From NCBI GenBank assembly GCA_963701965.1, contig OY969695.1, forward strand, positions 2,240,001 through 2,304,000: DNA of 64,000 bases. Direction: 5' to 3'. The position numbers and the translations under genes were made by a program. Below, one piece after another: positions 9,037 to 38,637 of the stretch; position 1 is the first letter of the stretch, and each line of letters starts with the position of its first letter. The notes beneath the pieces were generated by a model that worked only from the letters and a program-made list of their open reading frames with translations, did no database searches and was not told the DNA's origin. The DNA comes from an uncultured Gemmatimonadales bacterium. GTDB taxonomy: Bacteria; Gemmatimonadota; Gemmatimonadetes; Gemmatimonadales; Gemmatimonadaceae.

Positions 9037-9735
9037 CTAATCTACCCGCCGAAATACCACGAACCCGGAGCCTGCGAGCGCGATGAGCGCGAAGGAGAAC
9101 CACTGGATCGCGTAGCTCAGGTGTGGCCCATCATCGAGGGCCGGCGCGCCGCGGCGCACCGGGCGGCCGGGGACAAATGCGGTGTCCCCGCCGAGTATGA
9201 CGCCGTAAGACGCCACGGGATACCCGGCCCAGTGGCCGATCGAGTCGGGACTCAGCCAGCGGACCTTGTTCGGGTACCCAGGGATCGACGCGGGACCGGG
9301 ACGCGCGGCCAGCTCCTCGACCTGGCCGTCCGCCGACAGGCTGTCGGCCTCCCGCCACCGCGCGTGGTCGATCGTCGCGGCGTCCGGCGAGTACACCCAG
9401 CCGCGGTCGACGAGGACCGCCGTGTCGGTCCCCGCGACGCGCAAGGGCGTCACCACGTCCACTCCGGGCGCGCCGTCGCGAATGCGGTTGGCCAGCGCGA
9501 CTTCGTGGGCATAGTCGTATACGCCCCGTAACCGCACCCGCCGAAACTGGGCCAGAGCCGTGTCGCGCGGCAGGTCCTTGAGACCTACCGGCGCGTCTAC
9601 CAGACGCCCCAAAATCTCCGCGTTGCGCTGGCGGCGTTCGCCGAGCCGGTGCAGCTGCCATACGCCGAGACGAATGAAGAGCGTGGCCGCCGCCGCGGCA
9701 CACAGGAGAAAGAGGGCGCGTTTGCCTCGGCTCAT
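9037..9735 (-). CDS. SURF1 family protein
   Basis: [33 protein letters not shown] at 9735 (the longer ORF call runs through the repeat array). Confidence 0.9.
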
Positions 9736-9764
9736 GCGGTAAGCTAAGAGATCGCACGGGAGCG

Positions 9765-10233
9765 GCGGCTTGGCCGCCGCGACAGGCAACCGACAGTCGT
9801 TGTCTCGCTGTGGCGAAGGCCACAGGAGCGCGGCTTGGCCGCCGCGACAGGCAACCGACAGTCGTTGTTCTAGCTGTGGCGAAGGCCACAGGAGCGCGGC
9901 TTGGCCGCCGCGACAGGCAACCGACAGTCGTTGTCTAGCTGTGGCGAAGGCCACAGGAGCGCGGCTTGGCCGCCGCGACAGGCAACCGACAGTCGTTGTT
10001 CTAGCTGTGGCGAAGGCCACAGGAGCGCGGCTTGGCCGCCGCGACAGGCAACCGACAGTCGTTGTTCTAGCTGTGGCGAAGGCCACAGGAGCGCGGCTTG
10101 GCCGCCGCGACAGGCAACCGACAGTCGTTGTTCTAGCTGTGGCGAAGGCCACAGGAGCGCGGCTTGGCCGCCGCGACAGGCAACCGACAGTCGTTGTTCT
10201 AGCTGCGGCGAAGGCCACAGCTAGAACAACGAC
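9765..10233. repeat. tandem array of 7 x 65-66 bp hairpin-rich units
   Basis: Unit GCGGCTTGGCCGCCGCGACAGGCAACCGACAGTCGTTGTTCTAGCTGTGGCGAAGGCCACAGGAGC starts at 9765, 9830, 9896, 9961, 10027, 10093 and 10159. Confidence 0.97.
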
Positions 10234-11030
10234 ATTTGCTCACCCAGTTGTTCCGGGTCGACCGGGTGTTGGCCGAGCGCCTGTTGCAGCGCCCGCGCCG
10301 AGGACGGGGAATGGCCAGCGAAATGATTATTGAAGTAGCCATACACCGTGCGCACACGGGTCGCCTCGGCGAGCCCGGCGAGCGCCCGGGCCCAGGCCTC
10401 GATCTCCCGCGACCGGTCGACTTGGATGCGCGAGTAGTCGACGATCTCGCGGTCGGGTCCCATCCATCGGAGATACAAGAAGTCCGCGGTCGGCCGCGCC
10501 GCAAGCGCCAGCACCGTCTTCCGCGGAATCCATCGCGCATCGACGAGCGCCAGCGCGACGTTGTGCTCGGCGAGCAGCGCCAACACGCCGTCGTAGATCC
10601 ACGCGCAATGGCGAAACTCGACGGCCACGCGGATGTCGCCCGGCAGAAGCGTCAAGAACGTCGCCAACGCCGGCAGCTCGACGGGCTCGAAGTCGGGCCC
10701 GAGCTGCACGAGCACGGGCCCCAGCTTGGGCCCCAGCTCCCGGGCCCGGTCGAAAAACTCCGCGACGAGATCACCCACATCCCGGAGCCGGCGCTCGTGC
10801 GTGACCTCCTGCGGCATCTTGAGCGCAAACACAAACCCCGCCGGACTCCGCTCCGCCCACGCCCGCACCGTCTTGACCGGTGGAATCGCGTAGAACGTCG
10901 AGTCAATCTCGACGGTGTCGAACCCCCGCCCGTACACGGTCAGATAGTCGCTGGCGCGCGTCCCCGGCGGATAGAACGGCCCAACCCACGCATCGTAGTT
11001 CCAGCCTTGGGTCCCGATCCGGACACGCAT
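10221..11030 (-). CDS. DUF72 (YecE-like) protein
   Basis: IGTQGWNY..W...FYP, TVEIDSTFY, FALKMP..VTH, LVQL, AVEFRH, YLRW.G, YFNNHF.G. Confidence 0.93.
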   Translation of the reverse strand: MRVRIGTQGWNYDAWVGPFYPPGTRASDYLTVYGRGFDTVEIDSTFYAIPPVKTVRAWAERSPAGFVFALKMPQEVTHERRLRDVGDLVAEFFDRARELGPKLGPVLVQLGPDFEPVELPALATFLTLLPGDIRVAVEFRHCAWIYDGVLALLAEHNVALALVDARWIPRKTVLALAARPTADFLYLRWMGPDREIVDYSRIQVDRSREIEAWARALAGLAEATRVRTVYGYFNNHFAGHSPSSARALQQALGQHPVDPEQLGEQMSLF

Positions 11031-21000: not shown

Positions 21001-21233
21001 CCGAGCCCGCGCGCGGCGGCTGGCGCCGCTACCTGGGCTGGACCGTCGGCCTCTTGCCCATTCCCCGCGACTGGCCCCGCGCCCGTCGTCGCTTGTCCGC
21101 GCTGGGCGAGCGCGCGATCGGCGGCGAGATCGTCGGACTCGACGAGCTGTGGGACGCGGCGGTCGACGCCTATCGTCTCCCGCCGGCCGCCGTCGCGCCT
21201 CTGGCCGCGTGGGTCCTGGGCCCGAGTCGCTGA
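18048..21233 (+). CDS. N6-adenine DNA methyltransferase, Eco57I/TaqI (Type IIG-like) architecture
   Basis: IPFLNGGLF, SGTYYTP, VLDPACGSGAFL (motif I), LPNLDRN, FDAIVGNPPW (motif IV), C-terminal TRD-like region. Confidence 0.9.
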   Translation: MLLSSAHDSVTLAPILAALRFAAARQIDADDRARLGLGALASEAWVARGDGALRALIITPRAGMPARHLVGLVAERLARRAPHLLWLLIAVDSGEAGGSLALAAWSADRVPPRVAALIVDRAHVVESDADTIVALEAAAAIGPTDPDGALTHTRWIDILGREGLGRRFHRAVARAVNALAAGSEGRAAASERHEIALLYTCRLLFLAFLEAKGWLDGDRAFLGRAFDRCVAGAGGVHARVLLPLFFGTLNTPPHRRAARARAFGRIPFLNGGLFAPAPVERRRGIRFTDAALGVLFGDVLPHFRFRPHEDHTESAIDPAMLGRTFESLMETVARRTSGTYYTPRALVDTAVVAAIAQLLTGDGLTAAEAEAFVRGGPVAHELSDAMRARLGSVRVLDPACGSGAFLVHVLETLAALAARLGDTRPLGELRAAILTQSIFGVDTNPTAVWLCELRLWLSVVIESEVTDPLAVSPLPNLDRNVRVGNSLAGGGASCTNAPGIALLRRRYVTATGTRKRAVAMALDRAERAVAIAHVTRTLQRVRGQRADLLAAGRGRDLFGHHVAPHTERLTALRTESRALRRQLTALRDGAALPFAYAVQFAEAALGFDAIVGNPPWVRLHNIPASERERLRAGFRTFREAAWMHGARLARAGQGFGSQVDLAALFAERAVSLCRPGGVIALLVPAKLFRALAGGGFRALLRRDTRITAIEDWSDAEPAFDAAVYPALVVARRADPAGTRNAMTRVAVHQRGGRARRWVAPVDRLALDATDGCPWALIPPAVRGAFDAVVAAGVPMHETRFGAPWLGVKSGLNAAFVVTTADDGENAGDPASASGITRIVGRGERGAPRCGLMETALLRPLIRGETITPWVARGRERLVWAHDAEVLPEHAARWLAPWRHRLRARSDTRGGRWWRLFRAESADARHPRVVWADIGRSPRAAVLPAGCPSVALNSCYLARCPDLGDALAFAALLNGPLAAAWLNAIAEPARGGWRRYLGWTVGLLPIPRDWPRARRRLSALGERAIGGEIVGLDELWDAAVDAYRLPPAAVAPLAAWVLGPSR

Positions 21234-23452
21234 TCACCACGCGCGCCGCGTTAGCGCGCGTGTGGCTCGGGGACGCGGTTGCTGTCCCTATCCAGCTCGG
21301 CGCGATCACGCTCCATCCCCACCAAGCCTCCGCCGTCGCGCGCCTGGAGCGGGCCCTGGCCGAATTCGGCGGCGCGCTGCTCGCCGACGAGACAGGACTG
21401 GGCAAGACGTACGTGGCCGCCGCCCTCATCGCCAGGGCCCGGCGCCCGCTGGTCATCGCGCCCGCCGGGCTCCGCGCGATGTGGCACCAGGCTTTGACGG
21501 CCAGCGGCACGCACGCCACCGTCCACTCGGTCGAGGCCTTGAGTCGCGGCCGGCTGCCGGAAGCTGGGTGCCAGGATCCCGGCGCAGCCGGGATCAGTCC
21601 AACCGACCCCGGATCTCGCGACGCGGAGCGTGGGCGAGATCTCGTCGTGGTCGACGAGGCCCATCACTTCCGGAACCCGCACACCCGCCGCTACGCAGCC
21701 CTCTCGGCGCTCGCCATCGGCGCCCGCGTCCTCCTGCTGTCAGCGACGCCCGTCCACAACCGGCGACGCGATCTCATCGCGCTCCTGGCGCTCTTTCTGG
21801 GCGCCCAGGCGGCCGACGAGACGACGCGGGGACGGGTCATCGTGCGCCGCCTGCACACCGCGGAGACGCGGCCGCGCGTGGATCCCACGCGGTGGTTGAC
21901 CGTTCCCCACGACGACGCAACGCTGGACGCGATATTGGCCCTGCCACCGCCGGTGCCGCCGAGCGACGGCGGCAGCGCCGGCGCGCTCGTGGCTCTCGGT
22001 CTCATCCGCCAGTGGGCATCGAGCAGCGCCGCCCTGCGCGCCGCATTGCGCCGGCGCCTGGAGCGCGCCGGCGCACTAGCCTCCGCGCTCGAATGCGGGC
22101 GGCATCCCACCGATCGCGATATCCGCGGTTGGTGTCTGGGCGACGGCGCCGTCCAGCTCGCCTTTCCCGAGCTGCTCATTCCCCAGCCGACCATGGAGGC
22201 GGGCGCGTTGCTCTCCGCCGTGCGCGCGCACGAAGCGGCCGTCGCCCAGTTGCTGCGCGACGTGCGCGACCGCCCTGATCCCGACATCGCGCGCGGCGCG
22301 CGGTTGCGCGCGATCATTGCGCGACACCCCGGCCAGAAGATCGTGGCGTTCTCCGTCTTCGAGGACACGGTGCGGGCCCTGGCGCGTCGTCTGGCGCGCG
22401 ACGCCCGCGTGTGCGCCCTGGGCAGCCGCGGCGGTGTCGTCGCCAATGGAACGCTGACGCGCGCCGCCGCGATCGCGCGTTTCGCACCACTCGGCACCGG
22501 CGCCGCCGACGCGATTGATGTATTGCTCGCGACCGACCTGCTGAGCGAGGGCGTCAACCTGCAGGATGCCTCCGTCATCGTGCACCTCGATCTCCCGTGG
22601 ACACCCGCGCGCATCGAACAGCGCATCGGTCGCGCGGCACGGCTCGGGTCGCCGCATGCGTGCGTCACCGTGTATGCGATGGCGCCGCCCGTCGCGGTCG
22701 AACGATGTCTCGGCGTGCAGCGCCGCCTCGAGGAAAAGCTTCGCCACGCCGCGCGCGGCCTCGGAACGAGCGGCCTGATCGTGCCGCGCGCACTGGACGT
22801 GACGTTCGACATGCGCGCAACGTGCGAACGGTGGCTTGCCGCCGGCGGTCAGCGAGAGTGCCAGGCAGGCTATCCGTGGGCCGCCATTCGCGCGCCGCGC
22901 ACCGGATATCTCGCCGCCGTCCGCGCCGGCGGTGTCCCGTCGCTCGTGGTCGATCTCGGCGACGGCCCAACAGACGATACGGATGCGGTGGCCCGCGCCG
23001 TATCGCTGGCCGATGGGCCGGTCCTAACGGCGCCGGCGCGCCCCGAGGGCACCGAGCGGGCGGCACGAGCCTGGGGCGCGCGGCGGTGCGCCGCCCGCGA
23101 CGCCGGCACGCTCGCCTCCGACGACCCGCGGCGCGCCGCAAGGCGGATCGCGCGGCGGATCGCGCGGGCTATTCGGCGCGCCCCCGCGCACCGGCGTCCG
23201 ATCGTCGCCGCGTTGGCCGCCCGCGCGCGCCGCGCGCTTGCGCCGGCCGGTGCCGGCACCGAGCGCGCCCTCGCCGCGCTCGTGGACGCCGCGCTCGCCG
23301 ACGAAGCCTGGCTCACCGCCGTCGCGGCACTCGCCCGCGCGCCACATCCCACCACCGCCACCGGTGGTGCGCAAGACGATGTGACCGTGCTCGCGCTGCT
23401 GCTGTTTCGCGCCGCGCCGTCGGAGTCGCGGGAGTGTCGGCCAGGGCCTTGA
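21230..23452 (+). CDS. SNF2-like superfamily 2 helicase (start uncertain)
   Basis: LHPHQ, LLADETGLGKT, VVVDEAHH, LLSATP, ATDLLSEGVNLQ, QRIGRAAR. Confidence 0.9.
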   Translation: MITTRAALARVWLGDAVAVPIQLGAITLHPHQASAVARLERALAEFGGALLADETGLGKTYVAAALIARARRPLVIAPAGLRAMWHQALTASGTHATVHSVEALSRGRLPEAGCQDPGAAGISPTDPGSRDAERGRDLVVVDEAHHFRNPHTRRYAALSALAIGARVLLLSATPVHNRRRDLIALLALFLGAQAADETTRGRVIVRRLHTAETRPRVDPTRWLTVPHDDATLDAILALPPPVPPSDGGSAGALVALGLIRQWASSSAALRAALRRRLERAGALASALECGRHPTDRDIRGWCLGDGAVQLAFPELLIPQPTMEAGALLSAVRAHEAAVAQLLRDVRDRPDPDIARGARLRAIIARHPGQKIVAFSVFEDTVRALARRLARDARVCALGSRGGVVANGTLTRAAAIARFAPLGTGAADAIDVLLATDLLSEGVNLQDASVIVHLDLPWTPARIEQRIGRAARLGSPHACVTVYAMAPPVAVERCLGVQRRLEEKLRHAARGLGTSGLIVPRALDVTFDMRATCERWLAAGGQRECQAGYPWAAIRAPRTGYLAAVRAGGVPSLVVDLGDGPTDDTDAVARAVSLADGPVLTAPARPEGTERAARAWGARRCAARDAGTLASDDPRRAARRIARRIARAIRRAPAHRRPIVAALAARARRALAPAGAGTERALAALVDAALADEAWLTAVAALARAPHPTTATGGAQDDVTVLALLLFRAAPSESRECRPGP

Positions 23453-33795: not shown

Positions 33796-33825
33796 CCCCG
33801 GTGTCATGATACGGGGTCATGACAC

Positions 33826-34536
33826 GTGTCGGGATCGTCGTCGCTACTCGCGCTCAAACAACGGCTTGCCGAAGTCATTCGCGCGCCGGTTCCCGGGTCG
33901 GCCGGCTTGGCGACCGGACTCGACGCGCTCGATCGGGCATTGGCCGGCGGCGGCCTGCCGCGCGGACGGCTGACCGAAATCACGGGACCGCGGGGCAGTG
34001 GCAAGACGACGCTGGTCCGGCGCATCGTCGCCGTGAACGCGGCGCGGGCCACGGGCGACATCGCGGTCGCCTACATCGATGCCGCCCGCACGCTCGTGCC
34101 GCGCGAATGGGCGCATCTGGCCTTGTGGGTGATCCGTCCCGCCGATCCCGGCCGCGGCGCCTGGAGCGCGGACGTGTTGCTGCGGAGCGGCGCCTTTGGG
34201 CTCGTCGTGCTCGACGGCGCGCCGCCGCTCAGCCGGGCGGTGACGGCGCGCCTGACGCAGTTGGCCCGCGACAGCGATGCGGTCCTGCTGGCGCTGGGCG
34301 ACGACGACAGCGGACGGCGGACCAGTGTGCTGGGCGCGACGGTCCGGCTCCGCGTCAGCGGATGGCGGGTCGTGATCGAAAAGGGCGGAAGTCACCACGC
34401 AATGGAGGTGCCGCGTGACATCGGATTGGCGCGTCGCTTGTCTACGCATCCCGAGGTTCCCGATCGGCGCGGTGTGGCGCGCGCCAGGGGCCGCGGACGA
34501 TCTCCGCGATGCGGCGAGCCCCCAGCATTGGGATGA
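33826..34536 (+). CDS. imuA: ImuA-like RecA-fold protein
   Basis: TGLDALDRALAGGGLPRGRLTEITGPRGSGKTT, AYID, LLRSGAFGLVVLD; lies upstream of imuB. Confidence 0.8.
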   Translation: MSGSSSLLALKQRLAEVIRAPVPGSAGLATGLDALDRALAGGGLPRGRLTEITGPRGSGKTTLVRRIVAVNAARATGDIAVAYIDAARTLVPREWAHLALWVIRPADPGRGAWSADVLLRSGAFGLVVLDGAPPLSRAVTARLTQLARDSDAVLLALGDDDSGRRTSVLGATVRLRVSGWRVVIEKGGSHHAMEVPRDIGLARRLSTHPEVPDRRGVARARGRGRSPRCGEPPALG

Positions 34537-36188
34537 CCGTCTGCTGGCCCTCGCGCACGACAAGACCCTCAAGACCATTTCGTATGCCGCCGGCCGGCGG
34601 CGGGTGCGCGCCGGCATGACGGTGACCGAGGCCAAGGCCCATTGCGCCGATATCACCATCCTTCCGTGGGATGATGCCATCATCGATCGGGCGGTCACCG
34701 ATGTGACCGCGGCGCTGCTGGCGGCCAGCCCCCAGGTGACGCCGGCCGCCGGCGCGCCCGGCATGTGGTGGGCCGGCGCGAGTGGGCTCGATCGCGTCGG
34801 CGGCGAACCGGAGCTCGTGCGCACGTTGGTCCGCATCGCCAGTCAATGGCATCCCCACGCCCGCGTCGCGGTCGCCGACTCGTGCGTGGCGGCGCGGGCT
34901 GCGACGTGGGCTCTCGGCGACGCTTCGCGTCACGAGAGCCCAGATCGGTTGGACCGATCCCCGCTCCGCCGGGATCCCGGCGACGCTTCGCGTCGCGAGA
35001 GCCCAGATCGGTTGGACCGATCCCCGCTCCGCCGGGATCCCGGCGACGCTTCGCGTCGCGAGAGCCCAGATCGGTTGGGCCGATCCCCGCTCCGCCGGGA
35101 TCCCGGCGACGCTTCGCGTCGCGAGAGCCCAGATCGGTTGGGCCGATCCCCGCTCCGCCGGGATCCCGAGTGCGACCCGATCATCCCCTCCGGGTCGTGA
35201 CGCCGCGTATCTGGCATCGGCTCCCCTCACCCTCGCACCCATGGACGCCGAAGTGCGCGACGCGCTCTTCGCGCTGGGGATCCGGACACTCGGCGCGTTG
35301 GCGGCGTTTACCCCGGCCGACGTCGAGCGGCGCTGGGGCGACGCCGGACTCGCGGCCTGGCGGCTGGCGCGCGGCGACGACCGGCGGCGGCCGGTGCTGG
35401 CGCGCGTCGAGGCGGCGCGGGCCGTCTCGGCCGAGCTGTCCGGAGCAGTGTCGACCCTCGAGCCGGTCCTCTTTCTCGTGCGCGCGGCCCTCGACCGGCT
35501 CGTGGCGCAGCTCCAGGCCGACGGCCGCGCGGCGGCCACGATCGCCATCACCCTCCTGTTGGACGACCGGCGCACCGTCACGCGGGAGATCAGCATGGCG
35601 CGGCCGTTGGCCCGCGCGGCCCCGCTGCTCGAGCGATGCCGGACGCTGTTGGAGCGGTTCACGCTCTCGTCGCCCGTAGCCGGCGTGACCGTCGCGATCA
35701 CCGCGACCGCGCCGGCGTCCGGCGAGCAAGGCAATCTCTTCGACACCGCGTGGCGCGACGGCGGAGCGCTGGACGCCGCGCTCGACCGGTTGCGCACCGA
35801 GCTGGGCGCCGACGCCGTCGTGCGGCCGGTCGCCCGCGACCGGCACTGTCCGGAGCGGAGCGGCGCGTGGGTCGCGGACACGGACGCGGCCGCCGCCCTC
35901 GCGCCGGCGGCATCGACTGCCCCCGTCGCCACGGCGCCGCGCCGGTTTCTCGCCGCGCCCGAGTCCATCGATGTCGAATGCGCCGGCGACCGGCCGATCG
36001 CGTTTCGCTGGCGCGCCCGGCGCATTCCGATCGAGCACGCCATCGGCCCCGAGCGCCTCGCCGGCGACTGGTGGGATGACAGCTATTGCCGCGACTACTG
36101 GCGGTGCGAAAGCCCGGATACCGCGTTCGTCATTTATCGCGACTATCTGCGCGGCGCCCAGTGGTACGTGCAGGGCTGGCACGACTGA
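34415..36188 (+). CDS. imuB: ImuB, inactive Y-family polymerase-like protein; in-frame 4x21-aa repeat insert and +1 frameshift at about 35185
   Basis: VRAGMTVTEAKAHC; LGIRTLGALA; QGNLF clamp motif; GPERLAGDWW...RDYW...WYVQGWHD C-terminus. Confidence 0.85.
34915..35168. repeat. tandem array of 4 x 63 bp hairpin-rich units within imuB
   Basis: Unit CGGCGACGCTTCGCGTCGCGAGAGCCCAGATCGGTTGG(A/G)CCGATCCCCGCTCCGCCGGGATCC starts at 34915, 34978, 35041 and 35104. Confidence 0.97.
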
Positions 36189-36198
36189 CCGGCGACGG

Positions 36199-38637
36199 CT
36201 ACTCCGGACGCATCGCGATCACCGGATCGATGGCCGCCGCGCTCCGCGCCGGCAGCCATGACGCGAGCGCCGCGACGCCCAGGAGCGCGATGCAGACCAA
36301 CTCGTATGTGGGCGGGTCGTCCGGGCGAATGCCGTAGAGCAGGGCGGCGAGTACCCGTCCCCCGAGGTAGGCGACGAGCAAGCCGAGCCCGAGGCCGATG
36401 GCGGCGAGTCGGAGCCCTTGCCCGACGACGAGACCCACAACCTGTCCCTCGCGCGCCCCCAACGCCATGCGGATCCCCAGCTCCCGCCGTCGCTCGCGGA
36501 CCGAGTAGGCGAGCACGCCATAGATGCCGATCACGGCGAGCAAGAGCGCCACCGTCGCGAACGCCCCCACCACTGCCGCGTAGAGGCGCGGCCGGGCGAC
36601 CGTCTCCCGCAATGCCTGCGTCATCGTCTGGGCGGAGAAGATCGGCACTTTCGGATCCACGGCCAACACGGCCCGGCGGGCCGCGGGGATCAGCGTGCCC
36701 GGATCCGCGGACGACCGCACGACGAACGTGAGATAGCCGATCGACTGTTGATCGAACGCCGCGTAGAGTCGTGGCCCCGATGGCGCCTTGAGGTCGGCAT
36801 CCTTGGTGTCGCCCACGACGCCGACGATTTCCCCGCCCATGGTGACTGTGTCCCGGTGCCCGGTCGAGTCGCCGGTCCAACCCACGCGGAGGCTCTTCCC
36901 GATCGGCGACTCGCCGGGGAACACTTCCTTCGCGAACGTCTCGTTGACTACCATGACCTGGTGGCCGCCCGGCCGATCGTCATCCGTGAACGTACGCCCC
37001 GCGCGGAGCGGAATGCCCAGGGCCGAGAAGTACCGGGGTGTCACGATCTGGATGTACGCCAGCTGCTTGTGGTCGACAGGATCGGGCGGGCGGCCGTCGA
37101 CGTCGACGGTGCTCATCGCATCGGCGAGTCCGAACGGGACGCCAAATCCCGCGCCGGCCGCGATGGTACCGGGAAGCGCGCCGAGACCCTGGTTGACCGC
37201 GTGCACGAAGCCCCGTTGACTGGCCCACGTGGTGTATTGGGCACGGGGGAGCGTGACGTCGAACCGCACGACGTTCTCCGGTCGGAACCCCGGGTCGACC
37301 GCGATCACTCGCAAGAAGCTGCGCGTGAGGAGTCCCGCGCTGATCAGGAGGAGGACGGCCAGCGCTGTCTCACCGGCGACGAGCGCACTCCGCAGGCGGC
37401 CGGCGCGCCGGTGTGCGCTCGCGCCGCGCGAATCGGACTTGAGCGACGCGAGGACGTCGGAGCTCGCGGCCTGCAGCGCGGGCGCCAGGCCGAAGAGCAG
37501 GCCCGTGAGCACGGCGATCGTCGCGGTGAACATCAGCACCCGCCCGCTCAGGGTCACCTCATCCAGCCGCGGCAGGTTGCCCGGGTGCGTGGCGATAAGC
37601 ACCTGGATACCGGCATACGCCAGCGCCACGCCAGCCGCCGCGCCGGCGCACGACAGGAGCAGGCTCTCGGTGAGCAGTTGCCGCGCGATCCGTCCTCGGC
37701 CGGCGCCGAGCGCGACGCGCACCCCGAGCTCCGCGGCCCGGCCCGAGGCCCGCACCAAGAGCAGGTTGGCGATATTCGCGCAGGCGATGAGCAGCACGCA
37801 TCCCACTGCGCCGAGGAGCACGTAGAGCGCGCCACGGGCGTCACCCACGATGCGATCCCGCAACGGCTGGAGCGTGTAGCGAAAGTCGGCGTCCTCCTCC
37901 AGGTGCTGCTGGCGCAGGCGTTCCGTCACCGTCACGAACTCTTTGCGGCCGCCCTCCAGCGTGACGTTCGGCGCCAGCCGGCCGATGACCTGCACGTAGT
38001 GAGAGGCGCGCATAGCGGGCGCGAGGACCGCGGGATTGAACACCTCGGGGACCCAGATATCCGGGTCCCGCGGAAATGTGAAGCTCCGCGGCGCGACGCC
38101 GATGATCGTGTAGGGTGCGCCATCGAGGTCGATCGTGCGACCGACAGCATGCGCGTCCGCGCCGAACCGCGAGCGCCACAGCGCGTCGCTCAGCACCGCG
38201 ACCTTGGGCGCGCCGACCGCGTCCTCTCCCGGCGCGAACACGCGGCCGTGGGCGGCGGACACGCCGAGGATCGTGAACCAGTTCGCGGTGACGGTGGCCG
38301 CGCTCAAGCGCACGGGATCCGTCTCGCCTGTCATGTTGTTGGTGCCCATCTCGTACACCGCCATCGCGTCCAGCCGGTGCACTTGATCGCGCCAGTCCGC
38401 GAAGTCCGGCGGTGACACGAAGGTCGAATGGGTGGGGCCATCCGCCGACGTGACCGCGACCAGGCGGTCAGGGGCGCCAAAGGCCAGCGGGTTGAGCAGC
38501 ACGCTGTCGACGACGCTGAAGATCAGTGTGTTGGCGCCGATCGCGACGGCGAGCGTCACGACGATGGCGAGAGCAAACCACGGGGCCATCCGGAGACTCC
38601 GGAAGGCGGTGCGCAGGTCGGCGAGCAGGGTGTCCAT
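36199..38637 (-). CDS. duplicated ABC permease (ADOP/MacB-FtsX x2 family)
   Basis: DLRTAFRSL, IGANTLIFSVV, LLIACANIANLLL, ELGVRVALGAGR, GIYGVLAYSV..RRRELGIRMALGA, PARSAA.IDP. Confidence 0.93.
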   Translation of the reverse strand: MDTLLADLRTAFRSLRMAPWFALAIVVTLAVAIGANTLIFSVVDSVLLNPLAFGAPDRLVAVTSADGPTHSTFVSPPDFADWRDQVHRLDAMAVYEMGTNNMTGETDPVRLSAATVTANWFTILGVSAAHGRVFAPGEDAVGAPKVAVLSDALWRSRFGADAHAVGRTIDLDGAPYTIIGVAPRSFTFPRDPDIWVPEVFNPAVLAPAMRASHYVQVIGRLAPNVTLEGGRKEFVTVTERLRQQHLEEDADFRYTLQPLRDRIVGDARGALYVLLGAVGCVLLIACANIANLLLVRASGRAAELGVRVALGAGRGRIARQLLTESLLLSCAGAAAGVALAYAGIQVLIATHPGNLPRLDEVTLSGRVLMFTATIAVLTGLLFGLAPALQAASSDVLASLKSDSRGASAHRRAGRLRSALVAGETALAVLLLISAGLLTRSFLRVIAVDPGFRPENVVRFDVTLPRAQYTTWASQRGFVHAVNQGLGALPGTIAAGAGFGVPFGLADAMSTVDVDGRPPDPVDHKQLAYIQIVTPRYFSALGIPLRAGRTFTDDDRPGGHQVMVVNETFAKEVFPGESPIGKSLRVGWTGDSTGHRDTVTMGGEIVGVVGDTKDADLKAPSGPRLYAAFDQQSIGYLTFVVRSSADPGTLIPAARRAVLAVDPKVPIFSAQTMTQALRETVARPRLYAAVVGAFATVALLLAVIGIYGVLAYSVRERRRELGIRMALGAREGQVVGLVVGQGLRLAAIGLGLGLLVAYLGGRVLAALLYGIRPDDPPTYELVCIALLGVAALASWLPARSAAAIDPVIAMRPE

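Follow-up and report, generated by a model that had tools for sequence, protein, structure and literature searches.

A tandem hairpin array behind a DUF72 gene belongs to a dispersed repeat family of one Gemmatimonadaceae genus and carries an arm matched to its host flank

The 66-bp tandem array located behind the DUF72 gene of this genome (G000) is one of about 60 loci of a dispersed repeat of 60-80 bp, in which a hairpin (A), a short core and an inner hairpin (B) follow one another. The genus contains this family together with empty orthologous sites, sequence homology at the junctions, arms (the segment between core and hairpin B) matched to the host DNA beside them, and a site at which a single copy has become a double one. 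The reading that we favour, with a probability of roughly 0.58, is that the array is a non-autonomous mobile repeat whose arm was rewritten, during insertion or later, by fold-back (template-switch) synthesis with the flank as template, and which was then amplified.

The array lies within the window, the 64-kb stretch of DNA analysed here, on the plus strand at positions 9755-10220, where TRF reported a period of 66, 7.1 copies and 98% matches in the assembled sequence. It occupies the space between the stop codon of the DUF72 gene (10221..11030, minus strand; PF01904, E 6e-62; 269 aa ending in EQMSLF-TAG) and the start of a SURF1-family gene (9037..9735, minus strand; PF02104). As the original prediction had stated, there are seven units of 66 bp and no spacers; the units are contiguous and run in the order hairpin A, linker, core CAACCGAC, arm and inner hairpin B. 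In unit 1, hairpin A (8-bp stem, 3-nt loop) spans 9762..9780 and the core 9787..9794, both on the plus strand, and the core search placed the remaining cores at 9852, 9918, 9983, 10049, 10115 and 10181. Splitting the array on a shared anchor also bore out the minor variants announced for units 1, 3 and 7, which carry a 1-nt deletion plus one substitution in the 20-mer, a 1-nt deletion and one T>C, respectively; a further 1-nt deletion, in hairpin A, is common to units 2-7. The arm of unit 7 (10190..10202, plus strand) equals the last 13 nt of DUF72 in the sense direction and is complementary to the host gene end (10221..10233, minus strand; ...M-S-L-F-TAG), which lies beyond inner hairpin B of the same unit (10203..10220, plus strand; 7-bp stem, GAAG loop). 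Pairing of 10190-10209 with 10214-10233 on the minus strand gives the stem of 20 bp that had been expected between the last unit and the gene end, with one T.G pair. Folded as DNA, this terminal stem has a z of -7.4 on the minus strand, with none of 200 shuffles as good, and of -6.3 on the plus strand. The inverted copy had been described as the gene end plus 7 downstream nt; the 13 nt of host sequence stand, but the 7 nt belong to the repeated unit, part of which may nevertheless duplicate host DNA (the left junction reads CACGG, the interior CACAG). Since the host-matched arm is present in all seven units, amplification came after arm matching.

The array is real. That a strong hairpin misled sequencing or assembly, so that the array was enlarged or even produced as an artefact, would be in keeping with a single-contig assembly that has probable homopolymer errors (a C-run in an ImuB-like gene, the 1-nt deletions of units 1 and 3); it is nonetheless very improbable, because the units bear ordered variants, arrays within genes stay in frame, and the family turns up in metagenome contigs and in assemblies made independently, one of which, of 210 contigs, has a tandem pair (L143). 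A CRISPR array was rejected, as the units are contiguous and identical and there are no unique spacers. An attC site was likewise rejected by inspection: a RYYYAAC-like box of the attC type precedes the core, and the partner box after the core is absent. An Rfam search gave no family at or above the gathering threshold (12 sub-threshold matches, the best of 22 bits), and neither a sigma-70 promoter nor an intrinsic terminator consensus was found within 9600-10400. On the SURF1 side, a TAGCTT box lies at 9741-9746 (minus strand), 5 nt before the SURF1 ATG, and a TA[G/C/T][C/T]TT box stands 5-9 nt ahead of the SURF1 start in this genome and four relatives (L009, L011, L012, L020); judging from this box, the SURF1 gene may have a leaderless promoter of its own.

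Comparison with relatives indicates which side of the terminal stem came first. We collected 24 orthologous DUF72 loci, 23 of which reach the C-terminus, one contig stopping early. In most of these 23 the protein ends in EQMSLF, EQMTLF or a close variant, and the core is absent from the 200 nt past the stop in all of them, so that the locus comparison proposed with the original prediction returned DUF72 ends without the repeat. One relative reads CAA ATG TCA TTG TTC TAG where G000 has CAA ATG TCG TTG TTC TAG. Because the relatives lacking the repeat keep the DUF72 end, the 13-nt arm follows a conserved gene end that already existed, and by this alignment the 13 nt are host-derived. The conserved Q-x-S/T-L-F end resembles a beta-clamp-binding motif. 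In two relatives, G001 and G003, an imuB-like gene is found within ~1.5 kb upstream of DUF72 (L002, L004, L173, L175). Here the two genes (DUF72 at 10221-11030, imuB-like at 33800-36400) are 24 kb apart on opposite strands; as the adjacency seen in G001 and G003 is broken, the mutagenesis cluster has been rearranged.

Beyond this locus, both hairpins were detected at 67 of the 978 core matches in G000, compared with 1-3 of 905-2229 for five control 8-mers. Whole-genome TRF returned ten arrays with a period of 60-68 and about three or more copies, as well as several two-copy arrays. Every array of this period found by TRF contains AACCGA, and on the AACCGA strand the order is always hairpin A, linker, [C/A]AACCGAC, arm and inner hairpin B; usually the arm of the last unit alone pairs fully with the right flank. 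The list used below holds 63 hand-curated loci, a few borderline copies among them; a filter by minimum free energy alone was too noisy and was not used. Three loci of the family fall inside the window: the DUF72 array, a single copy at 21575..21641 (plus strand) in frame in an SNF2-related helicase gene (21149-23452), and a second array of 4 x 63 bp at 34908..35168 (minus strand) inside the ImuB-like gene, with an arm altered to fit the host codons. The helicase copy belongs to the GATC subfamily. In this subfamily and in the CTAG subfamily, inner hairpin B is common to different loci and always accompanied by the core (11 of 12 cases, the twelfth having a one-base core variant); at the DUF72, groEL, sufT-like and gdh loci, inner B is unique.

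The left part of the unit had been taken for a copy of a hairpin in the left flank of the array. That hairpin turned out to be hairpin A of unit 1 itself, and it is element-derived: hairpin A, linker and core of unit 1 recur near-identically at G000:896663 (31 of 37 nt shared, and one C-G/T-A exchange that is compensatory) and at G000:1084147. These matches bear on the origin first proposed, a one-off local fold-back from both flanks, retained in seven copies as an antisense regulator of DUF72. The exact 66-mer is unique to the array, as a one-off event would have it, and on the mRNA strand the predicted stem hides the stop codon, as a regulator might. However, hairpin A and core are common to ~60 loci, orthologs lack the repeat, and a target in cis is available to just one of the seven arms. 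Recurrence of the unit at unrelated loci had been named beforehand as the observation that would count against a local origin; the scaffold does recur, the exact 66-mer does not. Construction from both flanks is largely refuted as the origin and is the least probable of the readings considered here, although its other half, a host-matched arm amplified afterwards, was upheld.

The structure is strand-asymmetric. On the core strand the loop of hairpin A is GNA in 37 and TNC in 1 of 51 copies, the loop of hairpin B is GNA in 32 of 35, and the distance from core to B loop is 17 nt in 26 of 35, counts to which one subfamily contributes many copies. Individual stem positions show several base-pair types each across the family. 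GNA triloops confined to one strand are more in keeping with folding as DNA than as RNA. There is no replichore orientation bias (31 of 63 loci). The family is enriched near the GC-skew minimum, which is likely the replication origin, with 21 of 63 loci within 500 kb (G000:C1:2190000-3190000; p=0.007). Two repeats outside the family were also seen: a hairpin array of four perfect 45-bp units that lacks the core (G000:C1:4085199-4085378), and an 11-bp tandem run beside a degenerate family copy (G000:C1:3301190-3301300).

Among the genomes searched, the family appears to be limited to one Gemmatimonadaceae genus. A strict pattern matched G000 43 times and G003 18 times; each of the remaining four congeneric genomes had no match or one, and 35 genomes from other genera had none. 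With a looser pattern, the matches listed numbered 62 in G000 (0 for the reversed control), then 22 and 2-3 within the genus, and 0-2 per genome in the other 396 genomes of the family Gemmatimonadaceae, about the level of the reversed control; the negative tallies of both patterns and of the phylum sample below count the unpublished G012, whose sequence was left unused, as one genome. All five other genomes of the genus contain the repeat, mostly in a three-hairpin form (A-core-B-C), and elsewhere matches are at background. A sample of the phylum yielded 27 matches in G000 and single matches in 4 of 300 genomes, and a GTDB scan 15 stretches, all labelled Gemmatimonadaceae/Gemmatimonadales. JGI metagenomes provided 21 loci, 18 with the two-hairpin layout and all of these beside genes with close G000 homologs, and IMG/VR gave 0 matches to the family.

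Empty orthologous sites were found in relatives at DUF72, pyk, the ImuB-like gene, pccB and clpP. Relative to the empty orthologs, pyk is longer by exactly 63 nt, an insert bounded on either side by CGAGATC; the ImuB-like gene is longer by 252 nt in frame (4 x 63) and the pccB-accC site by ~63 nt, and the clpP-clpX gap is empty in three relatives. In the opposite direction, copies of the relatives that are missing from G000 orthologs are clean in-frame inserts of 72-81 nt, in a comparison in which both flanks aligned for 47 of 83 candidates, some of them not real elements. Target and element ends have 3-9 nt in common (CTAG, GATC/CGAGATC, TAGAT), and the sequence shared at the junctions, 3-11 nt when all are taken together, is variable and often imperfect; the relatives are 73-88% identical, too distant to reveal a fresh insertion. 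One orthologous site holds a single copy in G001 and a double copy in G003, which shows expansion in place. In the rpsA-pccB gap, G003 has a three-hairpin copy (L166) and G000 a two-hairpin copy in the same orientation (C1:4812780-4812856), and G001 is empty; this could be either one old, remodelled insertion or a hot spot.

Insertions affect genes in several ways. The gene stop lies inside stem B at 23 of the 63 loci, before hairpin A at 12 and at both at 6. Within called genes there are 17 of the 63 loci, 15 in sense and 2 in antisense, to which two antisense arrays are added that were missed by our hexamer-based gene caller; the genes that this caller missed are the ImuB-like and ABC array genes. 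By inspection, one copy follows a 23S rRNA and one follows a tRNA 3' end. A further in-frame series is that of an ABC ATPase (G000:C1:2607085-2607531), where 7 x 63 nt maintain an open frame and encode seven 21-residue repeats at the N-terminal strand, ahead of the Walker A motif. The unit length is divisible by three in 6 of 6 intragenic arrays vs 4 of 11 intergenic ones (p=0.035, the copies not being independent), which suggests that intragenic inserts are translated rather than spliced. The family adds peptides of 21-27 residues to conserved proteins, once to seven times. Just past its array, the ImuB-like gene (window 34601-35200; its ortholog has IMS_C) shows a +1 frameshift in a C-run that is probably a sequencing error.

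We then asked how far the arms follow the host flank. For the CTAG subfamily we scored the four bases of each arm that lie outside the tetramer: Watson-Crick pairs with the copy's own flank occur at 49 of 72 positions, compared with a mean of 22.8 and a maximum of 46 under permutation (p=1e-5); of the 18 rows tested, three look like chance regex matches and two are orthologous, and all were retained. By contrast, GATC arms pair at 17 of 48 positions vs 17.4 when permuted, that is, they do not match; they are common to different loci and complementary to the element's own left end. Rewriting would therefore not be an obligatory step. CTAG bodies are near-identical, yet their arms nearly all differ in sequence and in length (4-12 nt). 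Among genes ending in CTAG, an inverted copy of at least 7/8 of the own end accompanies 10 of 15 with the core vs 9 of 458 without it, 4 of the 8 nt being supplied by the element body. Individual loci agree: L113 combines a CTAG-family body with an arm, GTTAAC, matching a host site whose G000 counterpart is empty, and the third and last hairpin of L049 matches the host sequence CTAGAGCAG. At sufT-like and gdh nearly the whole stem is host-matched, with just a C-TTC-G turn past the stop. The DUF72, sufT-like and gdh arms match host codons over 13-17 nt, leaving almost no element-derived stem, and those of pccB, gdh and sufT-like follow the codons of G000 itself. A strand bias of G.T wobbles, suspected by eye, was not upheld (11 vs 8 in B); this result and the missing replichore bias weigh against the rewriting that we favour.

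An arm that matches its flank could also be the cause of an insertion. In this main rival reading, which we regard as a minority possibility, a donor's pre-existing arm pairs with the target and chooses the site, and later correction perfects some arms and so reprograms their descendants. The imperfection of the CTAG arms, ~70% matched and usually at 3 of 4 bases, is what a tolerant guide would leave, and it counts against our preferred reading, since with such well-kept bodies these arms are poorer than a fresh copy should be. GATC arms, common to different loci, complement the element's left end, which the targets resemble; the arm at G000:415530 fits the flank of G000:4117263 (7 nt) better than its own (6 nt); the core-to-loop distance is fixed at 17 nt; and on the non-core strand the order of target, hairpin and target-complementary bases parallels that of engineered IS608 as outlined in PMC5934647. 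A shared guide is, however, hard to reconcile with CTAG arms of 4-12 nt that are almost all different on near-identical bodies, or with the 13-17 nt of host codons matched at DUF72, sufT-like and gdh, and an HUH/Y1 enzyme was not found in the genus genomes searched. Similarly low odds go to a combined reading, a self-reprogramming DNA-guided mini-element whose 17-nt window from core to GNA loop would pair with the target, be overwritten with the complement of each landing site and be amplified in place. The enzyme behind it would act on single-stranded DNA and would not be among the Y1, RT and IS110 genes that we checked; each array would then store a guide against its own host flank.

Less probable again is a reading in which hairpin A and the core alone are mobile and land beside stop-codon hairpins that the host already had, or in which selection on RNA structure fitted the arms stepwise. 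Its best case is groEL, where core-less relatives (L252-L256) have a stop-codon fold-back before the terminator in four instances, perfect in L256 and partial in three, and where the arm may be older than the element, as far as this alignment goes. The unique inner B at DUF72, groEL, sufT-like and gdh and the gene stops within stem B at 23 of 63 loci point the same way. Yet the relatives have no such hairpin at DUF72, pccB, sufT-like or gdh, arms also match non-coding and start-codon flanks, and the inner B of CTAG and GATC copies travels with the core; the arm lies inside the element, so a single insertion could not have placed it there. The one-strand GNA triloops, in turn, argue against selection on RNA.

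Rewriting of the arm from the target would proceed as follows; the intermediate, the role of an enzyme and the timing of the rewriting are steps that we infer. The core strand would move as folded single-stranded DNA and integrate at targets that look like the element's own end junction; this short sequence would remain on either side of it, and the host flank would thereby become the 3' arm of the terminal hairpin. The nascent strand would then fold back at the hairpin loop, copy a few host bases and resume at the core, overwriting the 5' arm, and the end repeats could seed duplication in place as well as slippage or rolling amplification. Template switching is described as perfecting imperfect inverted repeats in bacteria in PMC5941160, and diversification followed by local amplification is the model outlined for BIMEs in PMC3333891.

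Searches for a mobilising enzyme gave no candidate. The Y1 transposase profile (PF01797) matched in 0 of 6 genus genomes, which are 67-95% complete, and in 6 of 14 controls; RAYT genes can be lost, according to PMC3333891. A Y2_Tnp profile had no match, the controls being equally silent. IS110 gave 5 matches in 3 of the 6 genus genomes, none with the element at its ends, none of the RT genes found is flanked by the element, and GIY-YIG matches were UvrC-like host genes or unlinked to it. Crude motif regexes (DUF559, GxxExxY, four-helix bundle, HUH, TnpB, HNH) produced no candidate, a miss by such patterns not amounting to absence. Element pairs 1-1.6 kb apart flank ordinary host genes, and the 21 metagenome loci share no recurring non-orthologous neighbour, bar one identical pair without the element. 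Both RTs and two of the three G000 IS110 genes lie in a low-GC block near 236-258 kb that contains no elements. The surrounding region (G000:C1:210000-258000; GC 0.61-0.65 vs 0.67-0.70) holds two group II-type RTs, two IS110 genes, an IS3-like gene and a second dnaE2, and by composition it looks foreign, either an island or an assembly chimera.

Antisense regulation of DUF72, as originally suggested, is unsupported. There is one sense target, and in the predicted fold of the mRNA strand it is paired by the nearest arm, which hides the DUF72 stop in the 20-bp stem; the other six arms fold within the array. Because the family sits in coding, rRNA-adjacent and tRNA-adjacent sites and in both orientations, a dedicated antisense role finds no support either. 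The array may have a side effect on DUF72 termination or mRNA decay, and any effect on DUF72 mRNA is likely to be such a side effect.

These repeats bear on how short palindromic repeats without a transposase, such as CGTC REPs, RPEs and MIRUs, spread. The family offers an unusually readable record: its junctions show homology, its core-to-loop distance is fixed, the arms are inherited in one subfamily and host-matched in another, and there are empty orthologous sites and a series from single copy to array, so that 'guide picks target' and 'target rewrites arm' are directly testable against each other. A natural target-templated guide, if true, would be of mechanistic and tool-building interest; if template switching alone is at work, dozens of loci would form a clean natural series of it.

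The family works in the manner of REP/BIME, RPE and MIRU elements. In a literature search covering mostly open-access main texts, we found no description of it or of host-matched arms. Like REP/BIME and REPIN-RAYT sequences as portrayed in PMC3333891, PMC3116915 and PMC3733652, it consists of short, dispersed, lineage-restricted hairpins that are strand-asymmetric, lie both between and within genes and are amplified in tandem after diversification, and it shares with CGTC-type REPs the lack of a known transposase, to the extent that such accounts go. It differs from REPs in that a GTAG/CGTC tag is not conserved at the foot of hairpin A; the four bases on the 5' side of the 9-bp stem A are variable (GCTA in 5 and CCTA in 3 of 51 being commonest), and a few CTAG copies read GTAG by eye. 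Unlike REPIN-RAYT systems it occurs without a Y1 transposase in 6 genus genomes, and unlike the inverted doublets of REPINs and BIMEs its A-core-B units are direct and head-to-tail. Two or three different hairpins surround an unpaired core, and it is host DNA that completes the terminal stem and to which that stem is matched, neither of which is REP-like.

Rickettsia RPEs are palindromic inserts carried in frame within proteins. The present family resembles them, as PMC3733652 portrays them, in being read in frame in unrelated proteins, in several frames and both orientations. From these descriptions it is set apart by its shorter length (60-80 bp), frequent tandem arrangement and locus-specific arms. 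MIRUs sit at start codons, with a coupled internal ORF at a spacing of -4, and form tandem arrays of varying copy number. Both they, in the account of PMC12548453, and the present repeats are short mobile units at gene boundaries. In contrast to MIRUs, the focal unit has by inspection no translationally coupled mini-ORF, boundary copies mostly overlap opposite-strand stop codons (23 of 63 on the B side), and the target is CTAG- or GATC-like junction homology joined to host-matched arms. By inspection, the left and right ends are direct repeats of 3-9 nt and not the terminal inverted repeats of a DDE-type MITE. IS110/IS1111 bridge-RNA mobilisation finds no support either, as none of the 5 IS110 matches in the genus genomes has the element at its ends.

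Closest to the arm itself are two processes. In IS200/IS605 transposons (IS608, also with an engineered 8-13-nt extension), the target flank is paired by bases of the element that adjoin a hairpin, as PMC5934647 presents it; here, however, there is no transposase gene, no left and right ends enclose a cargo, and the junctions carry short duplications, and the arm-flank pairing may be a product of insertion, not its cause. In the quasi-palindrome correction by template switching treated in PMC5941160, one arm is copied and an imperfect inverted repeat is made perfect, as proposed here; the difference is that here a single repeat family would be corrected again and again, each time in the arm and no further than a fixed core. 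For selfish DNA, fitting itself to each landing site by rewriting an arm on the spot would be unusual.
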